A DNA stretch of 64,000 nt from the NCBI GenBank assembly GCA_001938485.1, contig MQRK01237686.1, positions 1 through 64,000 of the forward strand, given 5' to 3'. Under the pieces are notes generated by a model. That model worked only from the letters and a program-made list of their open reading frames with translations, was not told the origin of the DNA and did not search any database. Positions within the stretch are counted from its first letter, which is position 1, and every line of letters begins with the position of its first letter. The translations under genes were made by a program, and so were the position numbers. The stretch is from Girardia tigrina. Lineage: Eukaryota. Of this stretch, positions 8,399-58,047 are shown in pieces.

Positions 8399-8782
8399 TG
8401 TTAGAATCTGTGGCAACACCACTCGGAGAAGAACAAATATCCATCACTAAATTATATTTATTAATCACACTTAATTATTGGATATTGAAAAATATTTGGA
8501 ATAATTGATTGATTGCGTTGATCTTCTAATAATTCCAATTTCCACTCTGATTTTCAATTCCCGGAAAAATTCTGCCAATTATTAAAACAAATTGTTTTTT
8601 ATTTAATTTACATTTAACGTTTATTCTATTTATTTAATTATTTCTTCGTAATGAGGAACTAAATTACGAAAGTTTTATTTTTTGTTAAACCGGTATTTTA
8701 TAAAATTATATTTAATTAACTAATTTAACTTAATTTCGATTGTCTATTTCAAAAATTTTCCGTTTACTATTAATTCCTAACA
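8399..8782 (-). mobile_element. Solo-LTR-like element (subfamily B)
   Basis: Ends tgttagaat...attcctaaca. Flanks tgaat/taaat (4/5 TSD). Minus-strand ATG at 8444 opens MDICSSPSGVATDSN to the terminus. Confidence 0.75.
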
Positions 8783-9123
8783 TAAATAATGTTCCTCGAA
8801 GCATGGATAAGACTACTCTTAAATGTTCTCTTAGATATATCATTTTTGAAGGAATTTTGGTTGAAACTTTATTTTTTATTTATTTTCACTATATATTTTT
8901 GTTTTAAAATTTGGTTAAAATTTAAAATAAAATTACTTGTTGAAAATATCAAAACTGATAAAGGCGAATTCTCCTTTATGAAAACCCAACTGGAACACTG
9001 TTTTCATAATCTCTCGAATTACATACGGCTTTGCGCAAAGAATAATAACTAAAAGATTAAAATTAAAAATGAAAAAAGCGACATTTTATTAATTTAAATT
9101 TTAAATTAATTAATGGAAAACTT

Positions 9124-9380
9124 AATAATAAAAGAGAATTATTCCGTTTTCAATTTTTATTTATTGATAAACCATTTCGTCTTTATGGCATCATCAGTTT
9201 TGAATTAAAATCAACTGCTAAGTGATTCATCCAATCATATTAAAGTATTTTAACGTCAGACATTCGACTCACAATGAAGACAATATCAGTGGATTAGAAT
9301 TCAGAACCGAAAACGTCTTAATGCGAATAATGTTTTTAACAAATAAAAAAATTAAATGGCGTTATTCTCTTTTTTTGTTA
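9124..9380. mobile_element. Inverted pair of Penelope-like pseudo-LTR fragments with decayed hammerhead cores
   Basis: ~45-bp imperfect inverted arms. Minus strand ctgatgatgcc..gacgaaa at about 9170-9198; plus strand atgaaga...cgaaaacgtc. Confidence 0.45.
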
Positions 9381-10250
9381 AATTAATTCTCAGATTTAGT
9401 AACTCATTCAATATGTAAGATAATTATAAAGAGACAATTAAAAATTGATTGAAACAATAAATTAATATCGAAACAAAAGGTCATAGAAAAAATAGGACTA
9501 TTTATTATTATAAAATTATAATTCATTCTCAAAATATATAATCTAAATATTATGGGTCTGCGGTTATTAACGGAAACCGGTTGTCAAAACTGCCTAGAGG
9601 TTTCCTATAAAAAAACATTAATAAAAGCAAATCGACCAAGAGAAACCAGAAAAACTTATTGGAATTATGCATTAAATTCCCATTATATTTATTATGATTG
9701 AATGAGTTTTTTTATTTTGTTTAAATCTGATAAGGAAACTTTATTGTACTTTTGTTCGAAATATAGGAGAAAAGTTAATGAAAATGGATAAAAGTTACAT
9801 TCAAATTAGCAATAAACAAACTAGAAAAAATATACAGACAAAACTAATTTTCAATCTTTTCTTGTTTAATTAATTAATTTATTTTATTTCTTTTATTCGT
9901 TATATAATTTAAAGAACATTATAAAAATCAGTTAGAAAAAAATAGAAAAAATGGCATGGTTTAAGGGAAATATTAAATCACACGCAATAAACTGTCTGTC
10001 AGAAAACGAACGAAAGTTGTTTCTGGAGAACGTTGCGTGACGAAAACGGAAATTAAAGTAATTTTTTTACTAATTTCTGATACGGTTTTATATAAATAAC
10101 GGAGAAGGTAAAAATAGTTTTCGCCAATCTTCTTTTAAAAATAATTTAATTTAAATTTTGAAAAATTTTTAAAAGTTAAAAACATTGATGAAAAGAACCG
10201 AATAAATATACAAGTAAAAGGATTTCAGTAAAATTAACTAATTTTAATAA

Positions 10251-11762
10251 TATTGTGTGGACGACTCAATTCTTACCGATTTTAGTTATAGATGTCTTTC
10301 AATCCTATTTTTATGATATCTGTAAATGTTAATGAAAAACACAATGCTTGCAGTCAAAACGTTAGGTGATGTGTATGGTAAAAAGCACTTAAAGAAAGGC
10401 AATGCCAAAATTGATTTAAAAAATTCCGTTTTGAAGATTTTCCTTTTAAAGATGACTAATATATAGGTCGACCAGATGAGCTTAGTGAAGATGAAATTAT
10501 AACCATTATCGGAGCGGATCGTCATGTTACTACACGGGAGATCGCAGAGAAGTTAATTGTTTCACAAACAACAATTGAGAGGCATTAAATACGTGTCGGT
10601 CTCATTAAGAAGCTGGATATTTGGATTCCGTATGATTTGAAATACGACAATCTGATAAATCGCATCAACAGATGCAATTCATTACTTAAACGCTATAAAT
10701 TCGATCATTATTTTAAACGAATCATCACTGGAGACGAAAAGTGGATTGCATATAGCAATATCAATCGAAAACGATTACGATGCATGCTGAATGAGTCATC
10801 GCAAACCAAAAAAGATTGTACTGCCGATTTGGTGGAATTGGAAATGTTTGCTGTATTTTGAGCAACTTCCAAGAAACTCAACCATTACTTTGGATGTCTT
10901 ATGTCGGCAACTGGAAAAATTGAATGTATTGATCAAAAGAAAACGAACAAAATTGGTCAAACGTAAAGATATCATTTACCATAAAGATAATTCTAGGCAT
11001 CACATATCTTTTATCACTCGAAAATTGATTGATGTAGGTTGGGTATTAATGTTGCACCCACCATATATGCCTTATCTCGTGCCATCAGATTATCACTAGT
11101 GAGCATCGATTCCGGCCACCTCATTTTATCCGATATTACAGATTTTCATAAATCAGTCATTAAATTAAAACTACAGTAGCATGAACTTTATTACTCAACA
11201 AAAACTGCTTTTTGAAAATTCTGAGTATTTAAAGAATTTTTTTCAGCAATCATTTGAATCTTTTTCATTTTTGACATAATGATTTTTAAAGATAAAAATA
11301 TATTATAAATACAGATATTTAATTATACGATTCATTAATGCTTCATTAATTATTTCCTATTTTTTAAATTAAAAGTGAACTTTTAACTTTTCCTTTTTAC
11401 CTTTTATTTTTACGTTTAACGTTACCTTTATTTATTCCATTAATATTGTTTTTTTTAACTTAAATTAGAGATTTTAAAATTATTAATATTGTACATATTT
11501 CAAACTACTTTTTTCAATCCCTAGACAACTCTATTTGCGGCAAAACCTTCAATGATGATGACACTATAAGATCTCACTTAACTCAGTTTTTGGTTGAAAA
11601 GGATCATACTTTCTACGAGCGTGAAATTTTCAAGTTGTCATAGAGATGGCAAAAGACCATCGTACAAAATGAAAAATACATCATAGATTAAAATTCATTC
11701 TAAATAAAAAAACTTTTTTATTTCATTGAACAATCGGCAAATACTTAGTTGCCACCCCAATA
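10251..11762 (+). mobile_element. Decayed mariner transposon interrupted by a 407-bp insertion
   Basis: RIITGDEKWI, HKDNSRHH, LHPPY..PSDYH, resuming after 11509 as FFQSLDNS. TIRs tattgtgtggacgactc vs reverse complement tattggggtggcaact. Confidence 0.9.
11098..11504 (-). mobile_element. Old solo-LTR-like insertion inside mariner
   Basis: Removing it plus one 5-bp copy (tcact/ctact) restores the mariner frame DYHFFQ. ATG at 11149 gives 17 codons +1 nt to the terminus, with one TAA. Confidence 0.6.
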
Positions 11763-11836
11763 ATATAAAAATTGTCATCAATAATTTACTTTGAAATGTT
11801 TGTAAACGTTGAAATCAAACTTTATTAGTTTATTAT

Positions 11837-12238
11837 TGTGAGGAATGTTTTGAATTGTTTGTTGATATTGTGCATGTTTTATGTTGATTCGGATTGTGCC
11901 TCTCCTACACAGATGGATGATTGATATTTTCTTTGATTCCTACTAGTTAAAAATAATTTAATTTAATTTTAAAGTAAAAATATTTAAAATAATTTTTGAA
12001 TGTTATATTTAATTTTTAATGTAATTTAAAATTTTAATATATTAATTTAATATTTACTTTTTTAAAAATTTTTAGATTTAATTTTACCAATTAGAATCTT
12101 TATAATTAATAATTTTTAATAGTTTTTCATTTAATGGAAAAATTAGTATGAATTCAGAAATATCAAGAAAAATGTCAAATAGTGAATGCGCTTGCGACAT
12201 TAATAAATGTTTAAAAACTCATATTGATGTTTTTAATA
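11837..12238 (+). mobile_element. Solo-LTR-like element (subfamily A)
   Basis: tgtgaggaat...gtttttaata, TSD ATTAT/ATTAT, conserved ctcctacacagatgg box. ATG at 12172 gives MSNSECACDINKCLKTHIDVFN to the terminus. Confidence 0.85.
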
Positions 12239-12540
12239 ATTATAAATACAAAGAGATAAAAAACAAACATAACAATTACATATATATTAAGAACACCAAT
12301 TTGACTTTTCATATTTTTATTAACTTAACAAGTTTGATTGTCCTTAAAACAATCTTTGTCAAAGCTTTCGTACGAGTACATTCTAACTATATTAATTACT
12401 TAAATAAATAGTTAAAATATTTATTCAAAATTTTATTGGTTAAAATTTAAATGATTAGTTAAAAAATATTACTTTAATTTATTTATTTAAAATTGTAAAT
12501 AAAATTAATTAACATGAAATTAATTTAATTAATTGTAAAT

Positions 12541-12673
12541 TTCAACTACGAGCTTTTTAACTGCAACAACTTTAATATACTCTATTGGAGCTAGAATTAC
12601 CACGGCTGCTGGCACCAGACTTGCCCTACAATTGATACTCGATAAAGTATTTAAAATGTTCTCATTGCAATAA
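12541..12673 (-). rRNA. 18S rRNA fragment (pseudogenic, V3-V4 boundary)
   Basis: Reverse complement reads gggcaagtctggtgccagcagccgTggtaattcTagctccaatagAgtatattaaagttgttgcagttaaaaagctcgtagttgaa. This is the universal SSU region with substitutions at normally invariant sites. Confidence 0.92.
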
Positions 12674-12839
12674 CCTTTGTTTTGTCATTGACCGCGATAT
12701 ATTCATTCATAAATGATATTCAAAATTTCAAATATCATTTATCAAATCATATCTTGTCGTAACAAATTACATGATTGAAAATTTAAAGTGTTATTAATTA
12801 ATATTATTAATATGCAATTTAAGAGGTGAAGCTCGGACT

Positions 12840-13185
12840 TAACAAAAAGCCAGATCTTCGCATGGCGCGGGCAATTTAGCCATCGCTGGGTGACTTCGAT
12901 CAGCATGAAGTTTTTTGAACCAAATGGTGAGTGAGAAAAAGTGCCAAAGTTTTAGTAGACTCTGTTGGGAATTTTTTGAGAAAGGGCGCCTCCGACTAAA
13001 TTGATATTGATAACGGAAAAGGTTTTCAATCAGAGACAATGTAAAGATTGCGTGAAGCATAGAAGGTGTCGGTGAGGTATCGTTGTGCATATAGGCCCTC
13101 AGGAAATGGCATCGTTGGGAGTAACCATCGCACAATAAAAAGGATGGCAGCAAGATCTGGACATGGTCTTCTATTACAATCTAAA
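12840..13185 (+). mobile_element. Ty3/gypsy integrase core remnant
   Basis: DNGKGF...YRCAYRPSGNGIV..NHRTIKRMAARSG, with stops and frameshifts. Confidence 0.75.
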
Positions 13186-13195
13186 CCCGAAATCT

Positions 13196-13239
<44 letters not shown>

Positions 13240-14339
13240 ATTTAAAATAGATAAATAGTTTTTGTCTACTTATTATTTGTGTATAAATTTCGGATTGTTT
13301 TTGATTTGATCGGAAGGCTAAAATTGAGTTGATTGCATTGATTGTGAGACGTTTTAATAAAATTCTAACGAAATTCTAATGAAATATTATCTATTTATCT
13401 ACTGCTTCATATGTTGCGAGTATGTCTCTTCCGATAAATGCTTTCACCATAAGTATCTGAATTGATTCATTTATTTGACATTCCTTTTAAAAAATATACA
13501 TTTTAAAAAATAAAGAATACACAATTTTAATTAGTTATAAAAATTATAAAAGAATGTTTTTAAGTAAATATGTTACGGGTTCATTGTCGTAAATATTAGA
13601 AAGACTTTCCTTCACTTTTTCAAAAAACTTCAAAGCCTGCTTATTGCTGATAAAAAAAATATTATCCATTTATTATTTATTATGTAATTATTTTTTCAGT
13701 ATTTATTCATGCAATCTAGGGTTTATTTTTCATTTTAATTATAAAATATTGATTTTTTTAAGAATAAGGTGAGTAATCAAATAATTAAAATGTTTTTTTT
13801 AATTATTAAATGTGAGATAGTTATATATTTTTCAATTAAATCGAGCAATATTTTATTTTATTTTATATCTCCACAATATACGTGATCGAAAGCATGAAGA
13901 ATGGTATAAAAATGGTGGATCTTCGGAAACCGTGCCTCCACATTATTTCAAAATCTCCAACTGTCGAGCACATGGAAAGGTACGCAAATAAAGACGAAGG
14001 CATAATTTCTATTACTATTAATGCCAAAATAAGTTTGGCAAAGCACGAGTTTAATCAAATAATTACAAATCGATTGAATTGTCTCAAGGCAATTTTTATC
14101 ATCCTGATTATAATTACAGTAGATGCGATTCAGGAAAATGCTATCTATAATCAGTAAATTCGAATTATCGCCTTTAAATTCACTAACGATATTTTAAAAA
14201 TTTATTGGATTTATCGAAATAACGAAATAAAATTGAAAATTTCGTAAATTTGAATCAAAACAATTTATTTTTAGATACATTTTTTACACATGTTTTTGAA
14301 ATCGCAATTGAAATTTTTTGCACACTTTTTTATTTCTTT

Positions 14340-14814: not shown

Positions 14815-14999
14815 ATAATTGTATAATAAAATTATTATTATTTTTTTTAATTTAATTTTTAATAATTTATGAAACACTTAGACATCCTGTATAGAAAAAG
14901 AGACAACCCAAAGCAGGACATTATTTTAACTCTCACAATAGTTCAATTAGTATTTTAAAAACATTTTTTGGTTTCTTATCATCAAATGCAACAAAATAA

Positions 15000-15160
15000 T
15001 AAACGATGCAGTGATGAGGAAGTTAAGAAGGTTGTTCCGGTACTTTTGACAGTGATGTAATGGTTGATCAAAGGGTTGATCTTTACTTTGATAATTACTA
15101 CACAAACAAAAATGTTTAGATTTTATTATTCTTAAAAGAATTATAATTTGTTATACAACC
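15000..15160 (+). mobile_element. piggyBac transposase scrap
   Basis: LYFDNYYT motif at about 15080-15105. Confidence 0.45.
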
Positions 15161-18100
15161 TTAATCATAATCGTAATGCTAAATTTATTGATAATATATC
15201 GCTTTAATGCTCAAAAATAGATTTTCTATGTTTATTTGTGATACACAAAAGAGGTCGAATTCCCTTGATAATAATGGAACGAAATGAAGAGACAGAAGGA
15301 TTTTAAATTATATTTGTTAGTAAATATTAATAATTAATTAATTATTATTTTAATTATAAATGAAATAATAAAATTAATTTACTTGCATTCAATTATATTT
15401 TATATTTGAATAACATCGTAAAATTTTGTATCAATTTTTTTAAATTTAATTTTTCCCAAATTTTCTTATTATTAATTACTAAAATTTGTATTTATATGTA
15501 GCTAGTTATTTTTTAAATTTAACTATTAAAAATTTTTTCAGTATCTTTTGAATATTTATTGTTTAAATAAAATTATTAATTAAATTTTATTATTAAAATA
15601 AAATCCAATAAAGTTATTTAAACAGTCGCTATTTTGATTATAATTATTCTTTTTACATTAAAAAAGAAAATTTTTTAATGAAAAAAGATGTTCGAATAAT
15701 AAATCATCGGACGAAATTCATTCAAGAGTTTGACGAAAAAACGCAAAGCTTAAGAAATAAGTCACAAATTGTCTTCTTTTAGCACTGGAAAAATAATTAT
15801 GTCCTCTTTTATTAATTAAAACAAAATATTTTAAAATTTATAACTTTATCTGATAACTAAAATTTTATCTTTTTACATAATATTAATAGTAAAAGCTTGT
15901 TAATAAATTTAAGAAGGATTTTAAAACATTTATTAACCATTTGAAGCATTAATTATATTAATAGTCCAGGGTAGTACGATAAGCATAACAGCAGTTAAGC
16001 GTAACAGAGTAATGTACATACGTAATGTAGTACGTTCAGAAGGTTTTTTAAGATTCTTGATTAGTGTTCTGAATTTAAATCAAGTTATATATATAATATT
16101 ATTGTTATTTATATTGAAATTTAAATTCGGAATCTTCACCTACCTCCCAGACAATTCAAATGAACAATATACTCTTTAAATGGTAATATGTGATAATTTG
16201 TCTACCTTTTATTCACTTTCAGACGAAATATAAATCACTATTTTAGTTCAAATCAAAACCGAAAAACTGAGAGGCATGTCGGGGCTTCGATCCTTTAGTT
16301 CATATGATGAAATTGGATATGGGGGTCACAAAAACACTCTTAAAAGAAGTTTCAGTAACATTTGGATGAGTCTTGCCTTGCCCCACTGTTATTTCAGCAG
16401 GCGTGAGCGCTGAATCGTTTTGAAAGTAATAAAATTAAAAGAAAAGAAAGCTCTAAAATTGGGAGCCTCAGATAATTGTGATATCGATTCGTGGCATTAT
16501 ATGATTGACCGAGAGATTTTTTCGATCGTACTTTTTCTGAACTGTTTGTTTAAACAAATAAAAAAGTTATTTTAAGCGCAATTCTTTGTCTTTTGAATTT
16601 GATTTAAGTCGCCATTAAAAAGAAAAATTACGGATTCAATAATGATAGAAAGAGTTATAATAACGACAATAGAAAAAAATCAAATGAATTCAGTGCTAAT
16701 CGGAACAATCGATTCGATCGTGATTACAGAAAAAGCGGGATGATTCCAATGAAAAATGACCGTCTTCGATCGTTTCCTACGATCGAAAGATAAACTGAGA
16801 CGATAAACGACGCGATCGGCGAGGCGATTCCGACCAGTTCAAAAATCGACGAAACAATCACGATGAATCGAAAAAAAATGTCGGAAATTTGTTTAAAACG
16901 ATCGTAGATACAATCACGATGCTTCCCAAGACCGACCAAGAGCGAAACGGCGGCAAGGGAATCCGATCGACCGAGCCCACCTGGGTGAACTTCACTCCAA
17001 GCATATTGAATTATGAATTCGATTTCGATGACGATGTATAAATTAAAGGTATTCATTTGTTCCTCCCAGCGACCCGAATTTCAGCCCCAACACCAGGATG
17101 TCGCAATCAGACGAATCCTGCGCCCACTCCGCTATCACATAATTCAAATAGGCATTCTCTTAATATTAATTTATTTTCAGTCGGTTCAATTGCATGTTTC
17201 GAATCATCTGCAGCAATTCGAAAAATTTTCTTATCTGTTTTAGATAACTATCTATCTGTATCAGATAACGATTTCCTTCTTTCTTATCTCTATGATTCGT
17301 ATGATTCCAAATTTTCAACAGACTTTATTTTTAAAAATATGGGACCAGCACAATGAGACCGGGCGTTCAGATGATCCACTGCACGCCTCTGCTACTACCA
17401 TCCAGTTTTCGGGGTAACTCGGGGATCGGGCTGAACAATTAGAATTGAAGTAAACAATTCCCCTTTGTCCTGCTTTTTTTGTGATCTCACGAGTTCGGAG
17501 TCTATTTCCAATTGTGAATTTTTTTTGTAATATCTAAACTGCTGTTACATCGTTTAAGGTATTGATAGGTCCCGTAAGTACCATTCATTTACCCATGTCA
17601 GACGGGTAGCTAACAAATAGATCGTCCACTGTTAAAAATTTATTTGGTAAAAATAAAACAGAAGCTCAGTTTTAATTGACAAAAAATGTTAAATGATATT
17701 CTAGTTAGCTCAAATTTTACTACTTTTTACTTACACAAACTCACAAGCCACTAACTAGTTCATTCCAACAGCCATTAATCAATCGATTTTCAAATATTCA
17801 AATATCTTGGAGATGGCCAATTTTGAGTCAAACCAAGATTGAAAAATTAGGCAGCCGATTTTCTCAGCGAAAATATAAAAATCAACAGGATTCAAAGGTC
17901 AAAGACAATTTAAAGTTTATCTTTTTATTAATCATATATTTTTATATTTTAGATACCAAGGAAGTATCTTATCATTCGATTGCCAGCATCATAAGTAGAC
18001 CTTCTCGACAGCAGGAGATCTAAGGATCTCAACAAATACATTAAAATTTTAAATAGAGTTATTCATACATATTCAGAATATTCAATCAGAAATCAATCAG

Positions 18101-18622
18101 CCATCTTGGAAGGAGCGGAACCACATTAAAACAACACAATATTTACGAAAAAAGTCTGATAATATTCTGATAATAGTCTGATAATATATACACATAAGAT
18201 TTCCTTTCTTCATTTGATTTATTTATAATGAAAAATAACTTAAAATTATTTAATTTTAAATGTTGAGCTATAAATATAAATTTATATTTCATTGAATTTC
18301 AACAATATTGTGATGGACATTTTCAATGTTTTATTTTCTTTTAGAGTGACGTTCATTGTGGTTCCAGAGGTTGATTGATATATTAAATAATTCCGTTATT
18401 CAAATATAATATGATATTGAGAAAATTAATATTGCAATTAGAATGGGAATTTTATATGATAACTCATCAAATATGAGTTTGTACGTTAAAGTAAAGCTTT
18501 TTGGACATTTGTGATGCAATTAACCAGAAGGTTACTAAACATAACAGAGTATAAAGTTAGTTGGCGAATTTTCTATGGTCATTGGCCTTACCTTTTATTG
18601 TTAGCAAGTAAACTATTATAAA

Positions 18623-20401
18623 TAGAGCAGGACGTACACTGATTTTTAAGAACCAGTGCATCGGATGAAATTTCGGTAGGTGCACCGGTGCATTGACCTT
18701 GAAATTATTTAAACAAAAAACAGTTATTTTATCAAAATATTAAATACTTTTTTTTATTTTTTATTAAATAATAAGTTACTTACTAATTATAGCATAATTA
18801 TACAAAGAAAATAACAATAATAATATTATTAATAATAATTCAATTAAACAGAAGGTGAAAAACACATTTTTATGAGAAATTACAGTTTAATAAGGTGAGC
18901 AGTTTGACAATCTTAGATGTAAAGCAATTCCGTTGCGTTGTTACAATATTTCCTGTTACTCAATATTAAGAACATTTAAACAAGTCTCGTTTGAATCTTT
19001 ATTGCAATTACATTTAGAGTCATAACAACTCTCAGAAGGTCTTTCATCGTTTGCCATCGTTCTAATTGGTTTTCTTATTTCTGTTTTTAATCATGATTAT
19101 TCGAACAATTTTTCTAAGTTATTTTTTAAAATATTTAAACTCTAAAAATATTAATTAAAAATATTAATTTTTACCATTTTTCAATAAATCCCAAAATAAT
19201 TAAAATGACATCAAATTATTAAAAATGCATTTAATTTAAATTCTATGAAAAATTATTAAACTTAATTTTAATTCTGAAATTAAAGATATGAACTTATAAA
19301 ATGATTATTTTAATTATGTTCGAATAGTCAATCACTTTAAATTTAATAAAAAATACCAATTTCCATCTGGGTGGGAGAATCACCATTCTAAATTCAACAT
19401 ACTTAAATCAACATACAGCATCCACACATTTACACATTGAAACAATTTAAAATATTCCTCACACTCAAAATACACATTCAGAAAGGACAAAAGTAGTATA
19501 GAAAAATATTTTCTGACATAAGGTGCAATAATCAAGAAACGCATTTTCGCACCACCATAAGTTTCTATCTTGCAAATTTTGATTCAGCGGCTCCATAAAT
19601 TATTACTTCAGTTCATTTATACATTCACAGGTAACACTTTCTGAATTATTTGTGGCATTTTGTCCAGTAGGTTTTGATATCAACTCGTTCATGGGTGTGA
19701 GTTTCGTAAACTTAGTTGAGAACTCATTTTCTTCAAAATTATCACTTACATTAATTTTATGTATTTATTCAAGATTCTGTTGTTGAAGTAGAATGTTTTG
19801 AAAATTATTAATGATCCGTCCCTTCTTAAGGAATGAAAGAATCTAAAAAAATCTAATATGAATCTAAAAGAGTTGCAATGTATATTGGGGTGTCCAGAGT
19901 TTGATTTATTGGATAACACATTTTTAAGTCAATAGTCATTGCTGGACAAACATTTTTACTATTCCTTCGAATGTTCTGCTTGTTGAGTTGTCTTATTTAA
20001 AAGCTGATAAACTCAAGGTAATATTAAAAATACAGTAACATATTTTACGCAACATATTGCTTCTGTTATTATAGTCTAAGGCTTTAGAATTGATATTATG
20101 TTCAAATTAGTTCCCAACCATTTTGAGAAAGTTCAACTGACAATCTGTTGTGGATAAGTTTTCAAATTCCAATCATCGGTAATATAATGTACAGTCAAAG
20201 AAATAGAACCCACATTGACTATTTGAAGTTCAGGTATCGATATTAAGTGATAAATGATGTACATCCCGTAAATTGTTCCTTATTATGTTCGTTTTTCATC
20301 AAGCAGTCGATTTAATACAATCTTTATTTGGAACGTTTAATTAAAAAATAATAAATAACGGTGCAGCAGAAATTTATTTCGGTGCACCGCGCCTGACCCT
20401 T
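18623..20401 (-). mobile_element. Decayed hAT transposon interrupted by a solo LTR
   Basis: Dimerisation domain LWW...VRKYF...SECVF|VTGNIVTTQRN split exactly by 18964-19463. ggtgcacc subterminal repeats. Flanks attataaa/attttaac (6/8). Confidence 0.7.
18964..19463 (-). mobile_element. Solo-LTR-like element (subfamily A), 500 bp
   Basis: Perfect TSD CTCAA (18959-18963/19464-19468). Ends TGTGAGGAAT...GTTCTTAATA. ATG at 19057 gives 31 codons +1 nt to the terminus. Confidence 0.9.
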
Positions 20402-21956: not shown

Positions 21957-22080
21957 TATTACTGTTGGGTTCTTGATCAATATTAGAATTCATAACACCA
22001 AAAATTTATTAATAACACATTTAACAATTATTCAAACAATTTTTGTTGTAATAAAAATTGTTGTTTTTAATAAAATTTTT
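21957..22080 (-). mobile_element. 3' end of a subfamily-C-like solo LTR (other end not located)
   Basis: ATG at 21993 gives MNSNIDQEPNSN +1 nt, similar to the peptides at 57437 and 34532. Confidence 0.5.
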
Positions 22081-22641
22081 TGTAGAGGAACTTTCTATCG
22101 ATTTCTTAATGACAAGATTCTTATATAAAAATATGAAATTATAAATATAAATAACTGATAAGTTATATTAAAATAGAAAATTTTTAATCCTATTTATTTG
22201 AAAATTTACATTCTTATTTTTAAATTAAAAACCAACAAAATTTTGTAGTCATATTTTTTACTAAATTAATCATAATGATATTTTATTATTTTAGAATTAG
22301 TTTAATGTTATTTCTCTTTTTTTTGAAACATTTCTAATTAATAAAGATTTTAATGTTTTATTTTTTTCAATATTTACAAATTTTATTATTTTTATGATAC
22401 GTTAATAATAAAAGTCTTAATTAAAATTTTTTTACAACATTATTTAGAATAACTTTTACAATTATTACAACTTATTTTATCATTGTATTTATATATATAT
22501 TTTAATCAATTATTTAAAAATCCATTATTTCCCAATTAATTTCATTTTAAGTTTTTTTACACTACAAATAAAATTCGATTATTCTCGAAAANNNNNNNNN
22601 NNNNNNNNNNNNNNNNNNNNNNNNNNNNNNNNNNNNNNNNN

Positions 22642-24370: not shown

Positions 24371-24767
24371 TATGAGGAGTTAGTTAAAATGTTCAATTCG
24401 CCAAATAATTTATATTTTTTTAATTTGAAATTTTAACAAAAATTAAATAATTATTTTTAAAAATAAAAATTTTAAAATAAATAATAAACGGGATTTAATG
24501 TGAATTTATAATAAACTTCTTAAACGAAATTATTTTTATGGAAATTAAAATTAAGGTCAATATTTTTTACAAAATAATTTGAAAGAAATTTTAGTTAAAT
24601 GTAAATTAAACATAATAATTTAAATAAAATTAAATAAAGTTGGCGAAATGAAAAAATTAGTTGACGAAATTATGTTTGAAAATCTATGTTTGTTATATTA
24701 ATAAATTTGGAATTAATTAAGAATTTCGAAATTCTAAATAATGACAATAACATCAATGACAATAACA
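24371..24767 (+). mobile_element. Solo-LTR-like element (subfamily C)
   Basis: Perfect TSD ATTTC. Ends tatgaggagttagttaa...aataaca. ATG at 24686 gives 27 open codons +1 nt. Confidence 0.8.
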
Positions 24768-25420: not shown

Positions 25421-25970
25421 TATTAAGAACATCAACATGGCTTTTCAAACTTTTATTTTCAATACAGTCAGAATTGTCTTTTGGACAACTCTCAGAAAAA
25501 CTCTCGCCATTCGACATCGTTCTGAATTGATAATTTTTTGTTAATGTTTGTTAATAAACAATTATTCGAACAATTATTTCATTATTTTCTGATTTTATTT
25601 TTAAAGTTCATTTTTGTAGTTTTAGTATTAATTTTTATTTACATATTAATTTTATTTAAAAATTATTTTATGTAAAGAAAGAACATTTAATTANNNNNNN
25701 NNNNNNNNNNNNNNNNNNNNNNNNNNNNNNNNNNNNNNNNNNNNNNNNNNNNNNNNNNNNNNNNNNNNNNNNNNNNNNNNNNNNNNNNNNNNNNNNNNNN
25801 NNNNNNNNNNNNNNNNNNNNNNNNNNNNNNNNNNNNNNNNNNNNNNNNNNNNAACATCTAAAATATCAATTTTCCATCTGGGTGGAAGAAACACATTTCC
25901 AAATACTAAACTCAACATACAAAATTCAACAAACCAATTTCAACATACCAAATTTAAAATATTCCTCACA
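25421..25970 (-). mobile_element. Solo-LTR-like element (subfamily A), internal N gap
   Basis: Perfect TSD TACCT. ATG at 25517 gives MSNGESFSESCPKDNSDCIENKSLKSHVDVLN +1 nt. Confidence 0.9.
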
Positions 25971-29110: not shown

Positions 29111-30199
29111 AAGGAATCGATTTTATTTTCAAATTTTCATCTTTAATCTCATTTAATCTAATAAAACAAATTCATCTTTTTCACATAATCCAATATATTT
29201 CTTAATAAAAAATAATTTTAATAAGAATAGTTTTATCAAATAATAGTTTTTTCCAATCTTTTCACATAAACCCACAAATTCATTTTTATTAAAAACACAA
29301 TCAGAATGACAAAAAAGGTTTTTTTTCTCAGTTTTTTAAAGGCAAATGAGGAAAGCGCAGGATCCATTCAATATATATATATATATAGATAATTACTTAA
29401 TTTGTAATATCAATAAATAAAAATAATTGAATCCCGAACAAAATATTTTATTTGAAAGTGACTAAAAAATTACTGCTAAAATATCAATTAAAATTACAAA
29501 ATGAAGTACTTTGTTTATAAATAAAAAGTGCAAGATTTTGTTTGAATTTATTTATTTGTGATTAACTGTAGAAGAACGAGGGCAAATGTTTAAAAACTAT
29601 TGATAAAAATACATAATTGCTTCAAAAAAGATTTTTTATTTTAAAAATGAAACAAGTGATTTGGAACCAACGTGAATATAACGAACTGTTTTTCGGGGCT
29701 CACACAAACCATCGTGAACGCATTTATGAACTCAAGGTGAGGCTGAATGGAATGGTTAACTCGGGATATCCGTTTGAGACATCCTCTACCAATCAAAATA
29801 AAAGGCTTTGTTAGTCAAGGCGGAATTCAGTAATCAATACAAGAATCAGGAAGCGCCGCTGTCAAATAGGAGCTCCATTTGTGTGGGAGTCATCAAAGCT
29901 CCGGGCTGGTCCCTTGAGAGCAGAACGACTGTGAAAATGATTAGATTTCCGGCTGATAGAACCCTCCACATTTGAGTAGCCCGAAACGGAGCTGCCTCGA
30001 GTTACAGGCCGGACCACAACATAAATAATTTTTTCGTTATATAATTTTTTAAATAGTTATATTTTATGTTTAACATATACTAAACATTGGTTGGTATAAA
30101 AGACATTGTCAATATTAAAAACACTAATTTGATTTTCGAAATTTTTATTATTATTACAAGTTGATTTTTCCTCAGGACAATTAGTAACAAAACGTTCCA

Positions 30200-30830
30200 A
30201 GGTTTCAGTGAAGGTAGTAAAGACTGCTTATATGATGTACAGAACGTGTGAAGTCTTTTGTGTTAAGCGATCACTGATTATATTTGCAACAGATTGCTGA
30301 TTAAATATTTTTTGAAAATCCTCTTTGCATATTACTTTTACAAAACATGTAAGCTTTGGAAATTTCTGGGTAAAACTTGTCGCAAAGTTTCAATTACTTG
30401 ACCAAATGAAAAAATGATCAAATACTGCATCCACTAGAAAAACTTCTTCCTAAGTTCTGGTTTTCTTGAAAGGATTTTGCTCACGCTTCTACGAGAACAA
30501 CATTGATCTGAAATCACAAAGCACGAAATGAAAGTTCTTATTTGCAAAGTAAGAAAATTATCGTAAAGCCAATCAAAAATAAATATCTTTATGTAGTCTT
30601 TTTCTCCTTCAAGGACAACTATTCAATGCTGTCTTCTACCTGGAGGTTCTCAAACTGTTGAGTAAACGTGTACATCGTCTGCAATCAAATTTGTGTGATG
30701 GTGACGTAGGACTTATGAATAATAACTATCCGTATATTCATTATGTGGTCATTGTCTAAAATATTTGGTCCGTACGTCCACGACAAGGCTAGATCTACCT
30801 CCATATTCACCAGAATTTCAGCGATTTAGT
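30200..30830 (+). mobile_element. Mariner transposase remnant
   Basis: NAVFYLEVLKLLSKRVHR and LPPYSPE motifs, many stops. Confidence 0.65.
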
Positions 30831-34531: not shown

Positions 34532-35666
34532 TGTGAGAGGTTTTTGTACCATCAATTTCAGAAATCATTTTTTACTCAATTTATACATTTTAATTTATAC
34601 AATTTATAAACAATTTTCAAACAAATATTTCAACTATTTTCTTAATTTAATAATCAATCCGCCGATCTCTATTTTCAAATAATTTTTCATTTTTTAAAAT
34701 TTTATTCAAATCAAAATAATATTTCGATTTTTATTTTTAAAATTTTAATAAAAATATTTATGATAATTATTATTTCAACGTATACTTAATATTTTGTTAA
34801 TTTTAATCCTTTTATACTGTTTTTTTATCATTTTGATTTTCAATTGAAATATTTTATGATGTTTTTAATTTTGGATTTTAAACAAACATTTTATAATATT
34901 TTTAAAATTTTTAAAATTACCTTATATTTAATAGTCAATTTTTTATATGTTAAATATTGAATTTTTGAAAAATAAATTTTTACAAATATTAATAAATTTT
35001 TGACTAGAATTAATATTAATCGTTTGCCATCGCTCTAATTGGTTTTCTTATTTCTGTTTTTAATCATGATTATTCGAACAATTTTTCTAAATTATTTTTT
35101 AAAATATTTAACCTCTAAAAAATATTAATTAAAAATATTAATTTTTACCATTTTTTAATAAATCCCAAAATAATTAAAATGACATCAAATTATTAAAAAT
35201 GCATTTAATTTAAATTTTACTAAAAATTATTAAACTTAATTTTAATTCTGAAATTAAAAATATGAACTTATAAAATGATTATCCTAATTATGTTCTAATA
35301 GTCAATCACTTTAAATTTAATAAAAAAATACCAATTTCCATCTGGGTGGGAGAATCACCATTCTAAATTCAACATACTTAAATCAACATACAGCATTAAT
35401 ACATTTACACATTCAAACAATTTAAAATATTCCTCACACAATTTTGACTAAAATTTTTAATTTTAAAACTATTTAATCAGATATGTTTTCATGAACTCAT
35501 ATTTATACTAAAATAATATTTTAATTCAAATTAATTTGTAAAGAATATTTTCAAATTCAATTTTAAAATATTTAAGTATCATTTTAAGTATTAATTTTTA
35601 TAATTTAAATTTATTTAACTTATTTAAATTCCAATCAGCAAATTGAAAATTAACTAACTCCTCATA
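34532..35666 (-). mobile_element. Solo-LTR-like element (subfamily C) containing a nested subfamily-A copy
   Basis: Ends tgtgagagg...actaactcctcata (as at 24371 and 58047). Flanks gtact/gtatc. ATG at 34568 gives MISEIDGTKTSH +1 nt. Confidence 0.7.
35019..35438 (-). mobile_element. 3'-truncated subfamily-A LTR, near-identical to 19046-19463
   Basis: About 420 bp of nearly base-for-base identity; lacks the terminal 82 nt. Confidence 0.9.
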
Positions 35667-37255: not shown

Positions 37256-37732
37256 CGTTCACATGTGAAGATTAGGAATTTGATATTTTTAACATTTTTA
37301 CGTAATACAAAAAATAACATATTTTTAAACAAGTAATAAGGAAAAAATTTCCGAGGAACACTTTTCATTTTTTTCCGGAAACAAATTAGTTATAGACAAA
37401 AATTATGAATTTTAAATATAGAAAAATTATTTAATATTTCATTTAGTTTTAATTTTACGAATAAATTACTTCAAAATTTATTTTTATTCGATATTTTAAA
37501 TTATTTATTTCAATTTAAAAAACTATTTTTTAGTTCAAACATTATCAAAGTTACATTTTAAAATTTTAATTATCATTTTTTATTTATATTATTTTTTAAT
37601 AATTTTCCATATTTTTAATTTAAACATGTATATTAACTTATTTTTTTAATAGTAAAATTCTAATATTTTAATTTATAATGTTTTTGAAATTTAAATCAAA
37701 AATTTATGCGAGTGTATCCCCAGATCCTCATG
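37256..37732 (-). mobile_element. Solo-LTR-like element
   Basis: Perfect GC-rich TSD CCGTC (37251-37255/37733-37737). Minus-strand start catgagg. ATG at 37295 gives 13 codons +1 nt with one TAA. Confidence 0.75.
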
Positions 37733-39461: not shown

Positions 39462-39472
39462 GTTATTATTAT

Positions 39473-39837
39473 TGTAGGAATGTTTAAAATGTATGATGTT
39501 GTGTGTTGATATAGGTTTGTGTCTCTCCTACCCAGATGACCAATTAATATTTTAATTCCAATAATCTAAAACTAATTTGATTTAAATTTGTATAACATTT
39601 TGTATAACATTTAAATTTACTTTAACTTATCATAATTGTGAAACTTTAAATAATTTTTAATAATAATATATTTTTTTAAAGATTTTTCAATTCTCATATA
39701 GGCTTAGATAATTGTATATAAATTATTAATTTTATATAATAATGTCTAAGAATGAAAGTTTCTCAATGTATTGTCTCAAGGATGATCCAAATTGTTTGTT
39801 TCTAATAACTCTTTGAATCAATGTGATTTCTCTTAAA
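39473..39837 (+). mobile_element. Solo-LTR-like element (subfamily A) inserted in a (TTA)n tract
   Basis: tgtaggaatg start, ctctcctacccagatg box, MSKNESFSMYCLKDD peptide then a frameshift. (tta)n on both sides. Confidence 0.8.
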
Positions 39838-44298: not shown

Positions 44299-45007
44299 TA
44301 TAGGGTTGCCTCATAAGTTTTGTATTTCCTCTAATAATTCCTCTATATTTGCAATCCATAATAAAATGTGAATTAGATAAAATAACATTGGCGATCTACT
44401 TATGTCCAATAATTTTTTTTAATAAAATAATAGCATTTTCATAAATTTCGAACATTTTCATCATCCTAATGGATTTTAATCGCTCTGATATTCGTAAATT
44501 AATTTACTATTGCTGGAAAAGGGATTTAACACCTTCACAGATGACTGATGAAATTAACATGGCCCTTGGAGTTGGAACAGTCTCAAAGAGAACATGTGAA
44601 AGGTGTATTTCCAATTTTCGTGAAAACAACTTTAACACAGACGATCAAGTCCGTGAAGGGCGGCCCTCTCTTGTCATAGACGAGAAGATAGTTAGACAAG
44701 CGTGTAACTACGAGGAACATTGCAGAGGGAATTGATCAGGATAAAACCACGGTGTGCCGGCACTTGAATTCAATGGGATACCGATACCTGGAAAATTACT
44801 GTGTGCCACACGCTCTGGAGCAACGGAACAAGGATAATCGCAAAAGATTTTGTCAACAGCTATTAGATAGTTCTCCCAGGAATGATTTCCTGTCCCAAAT
44901 CATCCCCAGCTATGAGGTCTGGGTGTACTGGCACAACGAAGGCGCTTCCAACAATAAATCATGGATAAAATGTTTTTTTGCGATAAAACTTATGAGGTAA
45001 CCTTTAT
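44299..45007 (+). mobile_element. Internally deleted mariner
   Basis: TIRs tagggttgcctcataagtttt vs reverse complement aaggttacctcataagtttt. HTH ORFs 44469-45000 with REGRP and VPHAL; catalytic half missing. Confidence 0.85.
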
Positions 45008-52054: not shown

Positions 52055-52582
52055 TGTTAGATGCTCTTGGAACATCCTCAGAATTATTATTAAAATTTGA
52101 TTCCTTTGATACAATGTTTTCAGAAAATGTGACTAACACTAATATTTAAACAAACTTATTTTTTGAGAAACAATTTGATTTATAAATCTTAAATCAGTAT
52201 AAATAAAAATAATTGTAATATTAATATTTGATTTTATTTTATAAATTTTACCTTTCATAAATTTTATTTTAATAAAAAATTACTCTAATATTATCAAATA
52301 CTTAATCATTTCGTAAAATTTTTTTAATTAAAAAAATCTCTTAAAAAATCTCTATTCTCTAAGTAGTATATTTAATCAAATTTATAATTTTAAATTACAC
52401 GAATATTAACAATTATTTAATAGTTTCGTTCAATTTTATTAATTTTAAAACTTATTCTACAATCATCAAATAATTATATATTTTAAAAATTTTCTACATT
52501 TTAATCGGTATATTTATTTTTTTTCTTTTAACTTAATTGTATTTCTTGAAGAAATTTTAATAATCTTTCTGAAATCCAAACA
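52055..52582 (-). mobile_element. Solo-LTR-like element (subfamily B-like)
   Basis: Perfect TSD ATGAT and TG...CA ends. GTG at 52139 opens 28 codons +1 nt (VLVTFSENIVSKESNFNNNSEDVPRASN). Confidence 0.8.
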
Positions 52583-53247
52583 ATGATATTTAATTACCTA
52601 AAGAAATTCGATACCTTTGGTTTTGTTCTTTTACGGATTTTGAAACATTTTATGTCTTCGAAAGGAAGTTCCGGTAGAAGTTTTAGAGTAGATCTTTCAA
52701 TAATATTTTGAAATTATCTTTCTTAGCAGAATTTACTCAAATCTAATCATAACCTCCTCTGTATTTGTCTCTTCAATATCCTGTACTCATAGAATACAAT
52801 ATGTCACTTGGTTTGAATTTTATTGGACGAGTACAATAAGAGGAAGGGGGGAACAAAGTCAAAAGAGTATAAAGAAACATAAAGTTTTTTTGAAAGTAAA
52901 AGTCATAGTGTACAATATATTGCCGTAAGATATAATTGCATTAAATAAATTTCTCGTCATACTCTTAACTTAATTATGAAAGTTTAATATCGATAATTTG
53001 AAATAATATTTCATGAGAAAAGTATTTAAAATTAGATTTAAAATAAGTTCCGTATTTACAACGTGGAAAATCTACACTCTCGATAAATCCAGTCGAAATA
53101 AAATCAAAGTGAATCATCCAATCACATTAAAGTATTTTAATTAATTAAAAATAGAATATATACTTAAACGTTTTTACAAAATTTAATCTCGTGAACGCTC
53201 GTTTGACTTTGTTTACAAATAATTTGATTAAATCACTTTTTTATTAT

Positions 53248-53288
53248 TCCGAAAATGTTTCGATGTATTTTCACATCATCTTCAGTGA
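53248..53288 (-). ncRNA. Decayed Penelope-type hammerhead motif
   Basis: CUGAAGA U GAUGUG-AAAA-UACAUC GAAAC. Stems I and III are broken. Confidence 0.45.
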
Positions 53289-54647
53289 TTTTTAATTGTA
53301 ATTCATTTTTTTTAATTGGTAATATAATTTAATTTTACTCATAATTTAATTTAAATGATATCATAATTTAAATTGACTATAATTTATTTTAAAATTTCCA
53401 ATAAATGGTAACATAATTTAAATTAATTATATTTGTAAAATATATTGTTGATCAAAATTTTTAATATTAAATTAATTAAAAATATTTAAAATTGAGGTCG
53501 CTTTACTTTTTTTCCATTTCGAATATTAATTAATGGATTATAGTGCCTGATCAACAATGATTTACAAAACTGCCGTTTGTAGGGTGATTCAAACTTTTTT
53601 TTGTTAAATAGAGAACTCATCTATAGAAATCGGTGAGCTTTTATCCTTACAACATCTGAAGTGATCAAACATCTTGCTCGATAGACTTACAATAATATAT
53701 TTATTTAATTATTTTTATCTGACAATAAAAACATTAAAAAATAAATATTTCAGTACATTTTTTAACAAATAACATTTTATAGAAATAAATAAATAAATAT
53801 GAATATTTAATTTAAATGTCTCGCTAGAATAATAAAAAATCGATTTTTTCTCAATTGAATTGATTTCTTTTTTTAAATCATTCTTTCTGAAAATTCAGAG
53901 ATTGTCAATAGAATCAAATTCAAGTCTTGATCTGATCATCATTGATTCAGATCCAGAAATAATAAATGTCAGTTAATATTACTTTTCAAAATATATAAAA
54001 AAAAGACATTTTGCTGTAGCAGTATAATTTATATTAAAATTTGATTAAATATTTATATTTTTTAGACTTCATAGATTTAGAAATACTTTGAACTGTCTTT
54101 ATATGTGGCTAAAGTCATCCGAAAAGAGAGCAATGTCAAGAGGATTGGACGACGGATGTCGGTTAAATTCCTTTTAAAGATATTTTCTATAATGCCATTT
54201 ATTTATAATGTTTTTCTCGTTTAATTTACAAATTAGCGACTAAAACTGCAAAGAAACATTTTTAAGAAATGGGAACAATTTCTAATATCATCCGGTAATC
54301 TTTTTAATGGAAGTCGTAGACAAATGTTTCGAAATAACCGACAAAAGTAGTTAAAATCTCAACATAATCTGTATCGATTTTTTTTAGAATAAAGAAACAA
54401 TGAAAAAATTTTTTTCAGTAAAATAAATTTCAAAACATTTTCTTATTATCTTTAAACACATTGCAAATGGTTATTTTCTTATATTAAAATAATTAAATAA
54501 TAGGAAATAGAACCGTTTGCTGATTTTTTAAACACATTTATAAGAATAAAATACTCGTCTAGTAAGCATAAAATTGTATACGGTCACTATTCATGACGCA
54601 TTTGGTTCTGCTCTCTGATTGGTTACAAAATTAATTATTTTTAGATA

Positions 54648-55260
54648 TGGATAAGTGGTTGAAACAAGGAGAAACACGTTATGGGAATGGTACCCAATCA
54701 ACAGATACTTTGCAGAAAATACAAACGCAGAAAAAAATGTAATGTAATGAATACATCAAATATGGATTTTCATTTGTGGAAGACAAAAACGGTCCTAAAC
54801 AGCAATGTTTTGTGTGAGGAGATATATTATCCAACGGCTGTATGAAACCTTCCTTGCTTTTACGACATTTGCAAAAATAACATGCAAATTAAAAAAACAA
54901 AGATCGTAATTTTTTAAACGCATATCGAAATCTAAGAAAAAATCAAATTTTTCATCTTATATCCTATCAGCTAACAAGGAGCTTGAAAATGATGTGGAAG
55001 CCAGTTACCATATTAGTTACCATATTGATTACGTATTCTTGATGTATAATGTATGCTTGGTGAAGAAGTAGTATCAGAATCAACAGAATTCCTCTGTCAA
55101 ATAACTCAGTATCACGAAGAGTTCAGGATATGTCTGAAGACGCAGAAATAACAATAATTAATTGAATTAAAAACAACAATTTTTTACCATTCAAGTTGAT
55201 GAAAGTACAGATGTCGCTAATTTTGCTGTTTTGCTTGTTTATATTTTTCTTTTGTATATT
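54648..55260 (+). mobile_element. hAT Buster/ZBED-like transposase 5' remnant
   Basis: MDKWLK...YIKYGF...QCFV...LSNGCMKPSLLLRHL...PLSNNSVSRRVQDMS...VDESTDV. Confidence 0.9.
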
Positions 55261-57222
55261 CATTTTTGCCACGGACATCATTTTGTTCTCAAAAAGCTGC
55301 CGCATCCTGTATTTGAGAGGATTTCTTAGATTCATTGATAGAAAGTTCGTACAGTAAATATTATTAGGGTATGATGTAATGGCGGACATAATTTTTAAAA
55401 CACTTGTAATAAATTTAATATATTATAACACAAATAAATAAAGTTGTTGTAAAATCTAAATTCAGTAACATTCTTCGACACAATTAATTTAAGTACGTGT
55501 AACTAAAAATAAAACGATTCCATGTATTTTTTTTATTAATTCATTTGATAAATTAATAATACCGTAATTTTTATTATTAAAAATTTTATCCTTAGTTGCT
55601 ATTGAAAATATTTTCAAAATAAGTATTTTTCCTAAATTAAGGAACTCGATATTGCCCTCTATCTTACAGAACTTTATCTGTAAATACCTATTAAAGTTCC
55701 TGTAACTCCTTACACTTGTAACGTCACTATCCTAAACGATGTGATTGAATCTGTTAAATACCGATTGACCTTCCGTTCTGTTTCTGTATTTTTCTTATTA
55801 TTTTTTCTGAAAGAATTATCATTTTTACCATTTTTATGGCATGATGCTCGTCCACTCATGTCATAATTTACTGTCCAAAACTTTTTTATATTACTTACTT
55901 TTTAACTTTTAATACTCAAATTTCTTTTAATTATTTTTAATTATTTATTTTCAAAAATATATTTTCAAAAAAAAAGAATCTGCAAGACTTTTCAAATTAA
56001 TTTTGATTTGGGAAAAATGACAATTTGTTTTTTTTATTCATTTTTAAGAAAAAAATAATTAAATTTCAAAGTTTTCGTTTAAAAATAAAAACAAGATGAA
56101 GGAAAAACGAAAGAAAATACGAAGTACAAATATTTTTAGATTTGTTTTTTTCTTATTAATAATTAATATTTAAAAGAAAAAAAATAGGAAAATTATATTT
56201 GTAATTATTTCCAATAAATATTTCCCATTTTTGCATAAATATTATTATTGGATTAACCCACAAAAATTGTTTGTTTAATGGTCGCGTGTTAATAATGTGG
56301 CAGGGATTACGCCGTCCCAGACGTGTTTTTCATGGGATTTAAACCTATAGAAACATTAATCCAAAAATCTTTTTTCTTTCTTTATTTTTTTTCAAAAAAA
56401 ATTAAATATTTATTTTGAAACTACTTATTTTTATTACAAATAATCAATTGAATTTGTCTGGGAAAGAATAAATTTATTTTCAAGTGTACTTTGGAATACT
56501 TCTTTTTCTGTTCCCCAAAAAACATTTTTCTTAATCTGATATTTTGAAGAAATATTTTAATTTATATAATTTACTGCTTTTAAGATAGAATTTTTAAATA
56601 TTTTTAATCATTTTGAATAAGGTGCAGTTAGAACATACAGAATTTCTAAACTGATTTTATTAGAGTTACCTATAGACTTAGTGATGGTAGCAGAGTCACT
56701 GTGCTGATGCCCGTTTTTGACATACTTGAGAGTTTGTTTTGGATTGAATCGTTTTATCAAAGTAAAACAAAAACGAATCATCAAAGTTTTATCTTTCTTC
56801 ACAAATGATCAGCCCAAAAGATCTTCAAATTCGAAAACAAAATAATCATATAATCGCCAAAATAGTAATTTGTCCCTCCAAAAAAATTTTAAACAAAAAT
56901 TCGTGTCAACAAAAATTTTTTACATGCTACTCAATGATGAAACTTTCTATTTACAAATAAATGTAAAGTAAAAAATCTTTTTCAACCTCCAAAAATGAGG
57001 CCTAAATGTTGTTACAATAATTTCAATCATGATGATGGAAATAGAGTTAAGTCATTTGAGTTTGAAGTGTCATTCTTACAAAATCTTGGACTATAATGTT
57101 ATAAAGTGGTAAAAGAACAGTCAAATAATTCTTTTAACATGATTGAAAAAATAGAAAAAAAACATTAATAAATTTTATATAGAATTTACTTAGAGTTAGT
57201 TTTAAACTTTACAATTGATACA

Positions 57223-57261
<39 letters not shown>

Positions 57262-57362
57262 AAATAAGATTTTTTTAGAAATTATACTACAAATNNNNNN
57301 NNNNNNNNNNNNNNNNNNNNNNNNNNNNNNNNNNNNNNNNNNNNAACTTTACAATTGATACA

Positions 57363-57403
<41 letters not shown>

Positions 57404-57436
57404 AAATAAGATTTTTTTAGAAATTATACTACAAAT

Positions 57437-58047
57437 TGTGAGAAGTGGTTGCAACCTCAATATCAGAATTCATTTTTTTAACACCGAAATTTATTAATAT
57501 AACAACAATTCACATATTTAAACAAATTTTTCTGTTAATTTAATTATCTCGCCACAAATTAATCTATTAAATTCTTTTCGATTCAATTTTTAAAATCTTG
57601 CAAATTTATTAAATACATTTCACATTAAAACTAAAAATTTATTTTTAAATTTATTTAAAATTGTTTCATAACTTCTATTAAAATATATAAATTGTTATGA
57701 CTGTAAAAATATTTTTATTTAAAAATAAATATTTAATATTTAATGGTTTTCTTATTATTGTTAATTTTAAGATATTTAATGGATACATTAAAAAGATATT
57801 TTTTTTATTTATAAATAGAAATTTAATTTTTTATGATTTTCTTTTATTATATCATTTTTAATTTTTAAAATATCTACAAAACACATCAAAAATATATTTT
57901 ATTTTTAAATACGTATTTGATTTTTTTAATAATTGTTTTATTATATCCTTTTTAATAAGCATATTAACATTTAAATATTTTACCTTTTAAATTAAAAAAA
58001 AATATTAATTATTCTGGCGAGATACAAATTTAAATTAACCCCTCATA
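57437..58047 (-). mobile_element. Solo-LTR-like element (subfamily C)
   Basis: Perfect TSD CAAAT. Ends (minus strand) TATGAGGGG...TTCTCACA. ATG at 57473 gives MNSDIEVATTSH +1 nt. Confidence 0.85.

Follow-up and report, generated by a model that had tools for sequence, protein, structure and literature searches.

Solo LTRs of a Ty3/Gypsy lineage in Girardia tigrina whose gag frame probably opens within the LTR

The GAG gene of the yeast retrotransposon Ty1 starts within the 5′ long terminal repeat (LTR). In Saccharomyces cerevisiae the Ty1 primer site also lies inside the GAG open reading frame (ORF), according to the accessible part of PMC4974528. Among Ty3/Gypsy elements of animals, the available sections of PMC3286476 describe the Mag elements, most of which have a 5-bp target-site duplication (TSD), together with one Mag-like element with a tRNA-Arg primer site, and the Mdg1/412 clade of insects, with a tRNA-Arg primer site, two ORFs, a 4-bp TSD and a length of 6.6–8.5 kb. 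The CsRn1 and Saci2 clades of parasitic flatworms have a 4-bp TSD, and the CsRn1 primer is tRNA-Trp (excerpts of PMC2582038 and PMC12471100). Here, we analysed a stretch of 64,000 nucleotides of Girardia tigrina DNA (assembly GCA_001938485.1, contig MQRK01237686.1, positions 1 to 64,000; hereafter the window), which has 27% G+C and is part of a 1.43-Gb assembly. A sequence-only reading of the window had listed 12 LTR-like elements, each with a peptide whose start codon stood 3n+1 nt from the 3′ end of the element. All 12 peptides were present at the given places, the coordinate being the left edge of the element, and 10 of the 12 elements were on the minus strand.

We favour, and hold to be probable, the reading that the elements are the solo LTRs of a compact Ty3/Gypsy lineage, primed by tRNA-Arg, with a gag frame that opens in the LTR. 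Translation would likely start from an ATG 8–32 codons before the LTR end, and the resulting N-terminal extension, here called the leader, is likely kept in frame only and not in sequence.

The lineage and its LTR/primer-site junction

Each element was searched against the genome, which gave families of 80 to 3368 candidates, and 40 were scored per family; elements 21957 and 25421 were judged from loci collected for other families, without a genome search of their own. The copies formed direct repeats around gag-pol, lying behind a polypurine tract and ahead of a tRNA primer site. By their features, the window elements are solo LTRs (384–611 bp, with a 5-bp TSD) of a Ty3/Gypsy lineage. One two-LTR element of the 18964 family (L031, 5205 bp) has a TSD and LTRs that are 96% alike, and it supplies two of the hits of that family. 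It contains gag with two CCHC knuckles followed by protease, reverse transcriptase (RT), RNase H and integrase (PR-RT-RH-IN, from Pfam matches), and stops and frameshifts interrupt these frames. When the RT of a sister copy was compared with solved structures, the best of 18 matches was Ty3 RT (E value 4.5e-50), the next kind having 7.5e-27, a measure of similarity and not a tree; the Gag N-terminus resembles the Retrotrans_gag clusters. An RT search of metagenome contigs gave one locus, L386, a two-LTR copy with the same layout as L031, and a Gag N-terminus search of metagenome contigs gave no match. Since L386 is a copy of the 11837 family, its source is probably the same or a close host.

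The LTR, the primer site and gag abut without a spacer, and in every gag-linked family the last A of the LTR and the TG of the primer site form an ATG that is in frame with gag. This junction codon is where the homology of Gag begins across ten families. The 3n+1 phase requires no special peptide, as it is the phase of the A/TG junction codon, which is also found in families without an upstream ATG. The further proposal of a diverse retrotransposon lineage whose first ORF starts late in the LTR, within its 3′ part, and reads through the primer site was borne out by the gag-linked copies, in which it continues into gag, and in both two-LTR copies, L031 and L386, the frame runs from the LTR through the primer site into gag. 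The junction pattern had 9428 matches in the genome compared to 920 for the reversed control, and there are roughly 8,500 LTR/primer-site junctions in the genome.

For a phase test, the first 100 listed junctions were picked blind to the upstream frame. The 74 that were used exclude five junctions whose upstream sequence was shorter than 120 nt and 21 singletons for which Gag matches numbered below four; an in-phase ATG was also present in 10 of the 21 singletons, so the filter lost some real ends. Open runs of at least 6 codons led by an ATG occupied the gag phase at 41 junctions, the 3n phase at 19 and the 3n+2 phase, which is mostly closed by the terminal TAA, at none. Composition-keeping shuffles gave a mean of 9.5 for the gag phase and a maximum of 18 in 1000, so the gag-phase count exceeds chance. 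Copies within a family are not independent, and when counted by cluster the gag phase had 14 of 24 against 6 of 24.

The leader length was constant inside a family and ranged from 8 to 32 codons between families (8, 10, 11, 12, 13, 15, 16, 18, 22, 26, 31 and 32 codons were seen). Clusters 6 (four copies), 8 (three) and 11 (two), plus L244, were leaderless and had the junction ATG only, with a stop 6–11 codons upstream of the junction in most copies. The leaderless clusters sit at two places on a weakly supported Gag tree (23 rows), which suggests that leaders were gained or lost more than once. Among database proteins, which are gene predictions, P0129, an unbroken Gag of 336 residues, begins at the junction Met, and P0131 and P0132 have leaders.

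In two families (L217, L218, L219, L386 and L215), the overlap of gag with pol is in the −1 frame and spans G_GGA_AAC, a heptamer among the shiftiest listed in the available part of PMC5009743. The integrase frame crosses the polypurine tract and stops inside the 3′ LTR (also in L386), and the stop is a TGA within the first five bases of the LTR in six of nine 3′ LTR junctions. With integrase extending into the 3′ LTR, the whole of the internal region is coding.

The primer site behind the LTR is TGGCG(A/G)C or a variant differing by one or two bases. LTRs of two families are followed by an identical 18-nt tail, whose reverse complement is the 3′ end of a tRNA; this match occurred at 19 places in the genome (control, 0), and ARAGORN called tRNA-Arg (3 ACG, 2 GCG) in two of the five loci scanned. 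Because the tail in these two families matches a tRNA end called as Arg, the primer is tRNA-Arg. In five loci, a copy of the 18-nt tRNA-Arg 3′ end, exact in L291 and L313 and partial in L306, L223 and L315, stands behind LTRs of different families and is followed by unrelated DNA; these probably arose by insertion of plus-strand strong-stop products. In the primer sites of the elements themselves, only about 7–10 nt match the tRNA, because these sites are also coding.

Exact 5-bp TSDs were found at 63 distinct solo LTRs. These TSDs, from four families, lean to the palindromic RTNAY, with A or G at position 1 in 50, T at position 2 in 39, A at position 4 in 37 and T or C at position 5 in 47. 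Many families have LTRs that end in TA rather than CA, or begin in TA rather than TG, with the last A kept; LTRs starting in TA are described for tomato TARE1 in the accessible text of PMC3701649.

Selection on the leader and competing explanations

A ribosome that scans an mRNA normally meets the upstream AUG first. We propose that transcription begins not far upstream of the leader ATG and that initiation would occur at whichever AUG the ribosome meets first. An AUG in the 3′ part of the LTR (the unique 5′ region, U5) would then be harmless only if it were unbroken and in the gag frame, in which case it would become the start, and once it was the start it would have to remain in frame, whatever residues it encoded. 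The junction ATG would be the default start and the sole start in leaderless families. Pol would be made by −1 frameshifting at G_GGA_AAC, and solo LTRs would be left by recombination between two LTRs, with the start carried along as a passenger.

The ratio of nonsynonymous to synonymous change (pN/pS) in five between-family pairs was 0.89 in the leader (95% interval 0.58–1.48, 70 codons) and 0.34 in Gag just downstream (0.27–0.43, 380 codons). When six equal-length pairs were added, all 155 leader codons gave 0.88 (0.63–1.28), and a run on eight pairs gave 0.82 for the leader versus 0.31 for Gag. Among 155 copies from six families, inherited leader variants, meaning those present in two or more insertions, comprised 46 nonsynonymous and 13 synonymous changes and no stops, the neutral expectation being 3.46 to 1. 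No inherited frameshift was found in leaders versus 16 upstream. In ten close family pairs, the ATG fell in the same aligned column in nine, and there were 5 gaps in leaders versus 34 upstream. The ATG and the phase persist while the leader residues drift. The peptides are homologous, as the sequence-only reading had claimed, but showed no amino-acid constraint in either the pN/pS or the variant tests. The leader is best read as a tolerated N-terminal extension, apparently held in frame by ribosome scanning, and not as a functional peptide.

Several observations weigh against this reading. The 3n frame was also above its shuffle mean (19 versus 9.6), and ATGs in the last 99 nt numbered 66, 80 and 61 by frame, so the other frames were not short of ATGs. 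In several representatives, out-of-frame ATGs precede the leader ATG by 16–26 nt, which means that a very short 5′ untranslated region or leaky scanning is needed. Of 17 runs considered as RNA evidence, 15 contained part of the window, at shares of 0.29 or less; the four that were mapped were all contigs, with LTR depth far above internal depth, as it is in DNA, and showed no start sites. The leader interval reaches down to 0.58 and leaves room for weak constraint. Private frameshifts were rarer in leaders as well (6 versus 34), so the deficit of inherited ones is only suggestive. The codon-sized indels claimed earlier held for net leader length but not gap by gap, as 1 of 5 leader gaps and 9 of 34 upstream gaps were multiples of three (p = 1.0), and the representatives for the gap comparison were chosen for an open leader. 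Finally, 2 of 20 branches of the Gag tree were strongly supported.

Translation might instead start at the junction ATG in all families, the upstream leader being untranslated U5 maintained by demands on the RNA or the DNA (primer initiation, integrase end), with an open frame that is a product of shared descent and higher G+C. We consider this unlikely. It accords with the existence of leaderless families, with Gag homology that begins at the junction Met, with the A at −3 and G at +4 of the junction ATG in most families, with the lack of amino-acid constraint and with a leader G+C of 0.25–0.41 compared to 0.14–0.21 in the rest of the LTR, but it sits poorly with an ATG held in the gag phase at so many different distances, with the excess of observed over shuffled frames and with an upstream AUG that scanning ribosomes would normally meet first. 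The leader might also be a functional N-terminal domain of Gag, for example a metal-binding or targeting domain in the Cys-rich group with 22–32 codons, or leaky scanning might yield two Gag forms that the leader distinguishes, with selection on it weak or diversifying. The long leaders of several families do have recurrent Cys, Asn and acidic residues, leader-bearing families keep both ATGs, and the lower pN/pS limits of 0.58–0.63 would allow it. The point estimates are nevertheless near 1, inherited nonsynonymous variants strike Cys positions (in the 18964 family one site is C, F, L or H), long leaders cannot be aligned with short ones, and whole families are leaderless, so we regard a functional domain as quite improbable.

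Two further accounts concern the solo LTRs themselves. As anatomy, the portable promoter, start codon and peptide described by the sequence-only reading is real, and it would allow host use of thousands of copies for fused or new proteins; moreover, 12 of 14 oriented window LTRs share the minus-strand orientation of the only host gene mapped (p = 0.013). When 58 TSD-flanked solo LTRs with distinct flanks were compared, however, the leader frame continued into the flank for a median of 11 codons versus 12 in the next frame, and it reached at least 50 codons in three, in one case by landing in the gag of another element. A pooled test gave p = 0.0016, but this was driven by the third frame (median 1.5 codons), which is likely closed by stops inside the RTNAY-type TSD, and the fair comparison is thus 11 versus 12. 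Several window copies have also lost the start or the frame, and chimeric transcripts were not seen. Host use of solo-LTR starts has no support here, and we give it even less credence than a functional leader. It is hardly credible that the repeats are non-autonomous DNA transposons (Ginger-like, or miniature inverted-repeat transposable elements) with frames that are chance picks in AT-rich DNA. The TG...CA-like ends, the 5-bp TSDs and the 6 of 12 picks that were wrong in detail or unsupported could be cited for it, but the arrangement of copies as direct repeats that flank gag-pol, preceded by a polypurine tract and followed by a tRNA primer site, refutes it for the families with gag-linked copies; no gag-linked copies of the 11098 and 37256 families were found.

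LTR copies and other features of the window

The lineage copies in the window are listed in Table 1.

Table 1. Positions of LTR copies of the lineage in the window
Position	Strand	Element	Leader	TSD	Relation to other loci
8399-8782	−	Solo LTR, 384 bp	15 codons at 8399-8444	One mismatch	
11098-11504	−	Decayed solo LTR, low-copy family	Family leader 13 codons; own frame broken	Two mismatches	
11837-12238	+	Solo LTR, 402 bp	22 codons at 12172-12238	Exact	
12285-12560	−	3′ part of another lineage LTR; terminus at the left edge, right edge uncertain	32 codons with one stop		87% match to junction loci L313 and L271
18964-19463	−	Solo LTR, 500 bp	31 codons at 18964-19057	Exact	
21963-21993	−	LTR 3′ end	10 codons		Aligns with the junction in L247
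22642-22927	−	LTR 5′ part			Related to 11837 family, 73–83% identity
24371-24767	+	Older solo LTR, 397 bp	Family leader 16 codons; copy without family ATG	Exact	
25421-25970	−	Solo LTR containing assembly gap	32 codons at 25421-25517	Exact	
30113-30209	−	Decayed LTR 3′ end	32 open codons, ATG gone		73–75% to L260, L280 and L313
34532-35666	−	Older solo LTR split by nested LTR	12 codons at 34532-34568	Two mismatches	
35014-35438	−	Nested LTR	Most of leader lost		18964 family
37256-37732	−	3′-truncated LTR, 15 nt short of family terminus	Family leader 15 codons	None	
52055-52582	−	Older solo LTR, 528 bp	Family leader 18 codons from ATG, missing in copy	Exact	Nearest gag-linked family L307, 76%
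57437-58047	−	Solo LTR, 611 bp	12 codons at 57437-57473	Exact	

Ten of the elements had been reported as delimited by TSDs, which was exact for six of them and held with one or two mismatches for three more but not for 37256. The start codons chosen by eye equalled the family start in 6 of 12 cases (8399, 11837, 18964, 25421, 34532 and 57437). The starts at 24371 (27 codons) and 52055 (a GTG at 28 codons) had been chosen in copies without the family ATG, those of 11098 (17 codons) and 37256 were mis-picked, and the end of 21957 was mis-picked, its terminus being 21963. The 3n+1 phase was kept in all five of these families. For 31120, also proposed as an LTR end, a genome search gave only low-complexity matches and no family.

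The 8399 family had 895 candidates, of which 40 were scored, at 93–100%, and two of 30 loci run through the primer site into gag. Corresponding figures were 3368 candidates and 3 of 30 loci for the 11837 family, to which L386 is the two-LTR relative, and 3046 candidates and 2 of 30 loci for the 57437 family. For the 18964 family (1236 candidates), 4 of 30 loci run on into gag and 3 have a polypurine tract in front. The 34532 family had a primer site behind two distinct insertions (30 loci), and no primer-site-linked copy of the 11098 family was found among 19 relatives. Junction cluster 5 has a leader of the 25421 kind that runs into gag, and the 16-residue leader before Gag in protein P0131 resembles the 24371 family leader. 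The 11837 copy has an extra in-frame ATG 24 nt upstream of its leader start. The 5′ end of the LTR at 21963 is uncertain, and an assembly gap is located at 22592–22641. The nested copy at 35014, absent from the earlier list, is a counter-example to a fixed frame.

More decayed LTR-like pieces with the 5′ motif of the 11837 and 18964 families were seen at 39470–39830 and 17960–18250. Nesting is frequent, with lineage LTRs inside other lineage elements (L100, L104, L044, L009 and window position 35014), and in L100 the LTR is inserted directly in a primer site.

A receptor guanylyl cyclase gene has exons on the minus strand at 4749–5361 and 8945–9061, with the best database matches being molluscan (34–38%), and an exon search found none beyond 9061. 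The 8399 LTR is inside an intron of this gene in sense orientation. Decayed pieces of mariner/Tc1-like transposases and a non-LTR RT fragment were recognised by eye from the ORF list at 2526–3365, 5602–6846, 10400–11660, 44692–45000, 58979–59395 and 61138–62484, and one of the pieces is interrupted by the 11098 LTR. A candidate, at about 12545–12720 on the minus strand, is what we take to be a short fragment of 18S ribosomal RNA, and a plus-strand ORF at 1666–2193 resembles, by eye, a candidate RWD-domain exon.

Significance and comparison with known systems

What appears to be new here is a Ty1-like start in an animal Gypsy lineage, an ATG made at the junction and a leader series of 0 to 32 codons, with the peptide itself apparently a passenger. 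In a literature search that covered mainly open-access papers, and few entries of Repbase or GyDB, no gag start lying inside the LTR or made at the junction was described for Gypsy elements of animals. Such a start is not mentioned for Mag elements in the accessible sections of PMC3286476, and the available parts of PMC3601003, PMC12440569, PMC9503155 and bioRxiv 10.64898/2025.12.11.693146 contain nothing on an LTR-internal gag start.

The Ty1-type layout is now seen in a large animal Ty3/Gypsy lineage and suggests a rule, namely that where gag begins at the joint of LTR and primer site, an in-frame U5 ATG can be added at little cost. The same few bases serve as primer site, integrase end and start codon, and these overlapping constraints are testable across dozens of families in one genome. 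For annotation, dividing the LTR from the internal part mis-calls Gag N-termini, and spurious short ORFs can arise from solo LTRs. A wider claim, which we find doubtful, is that the lineage dispensed with non-coding internal DNA, taking its start codon from the last base of the LTR and the first two bases of the primer and its pol stop from the TGTGA of the 3′ LTR, and that sub-lineages independently recruited U5 as coding sequence, yielding a series (0 to 32 codons) of new N-termini, some of which would have been exported to host genes by thousands of solo LTRs.

From its features and not from an RT tree, we assign the lineage to Ty3/Gypsy (Metaviridae), Mag-like in TSD and size. Clade naming from database labels was dropped, as these labels are automatic best matches only. 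The likeness of the lineage to Ty1 is one of layout and not of descent: in both, the gag frame begins within the LTR and extends across the primer site. Integrase does not precede RT as in Ty1/copia, the order being PR-RT-RH-IN. Also unlike Ty1, the lineage has tRNA-Arg in place of initiator Met as its primer, a −1 overlap of gag with pol, an animal host, a second in-frame ATG at the LTR/primer-site joint and a leader that varies from 0 to 32 codons between families. As far as the available parts of the cited sources extend, the 5-bp TSD sets the lineage apart from CsRn1 and Saci2, and the tRNA-Arg primer sets it apart from CsRn1. It shares the primer and two ORFs with Mdg1/412 but differs in its 5-bp TSD (a 4-bp TSD did not fit), its length of about 5 kb and its lack of non-coding internal DNA. 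With Ty3/Gypsy elements it has in common the domain order and the CCHC knuckles, and with Mag elements a length of about 5 kb and the 5-bp TSD. In contrast to Mag, its LTRs are 384–611 bp rather than 145–197 bp, and most Mag elements use Leu or Ser primers (accessible sections of PMC3286476).

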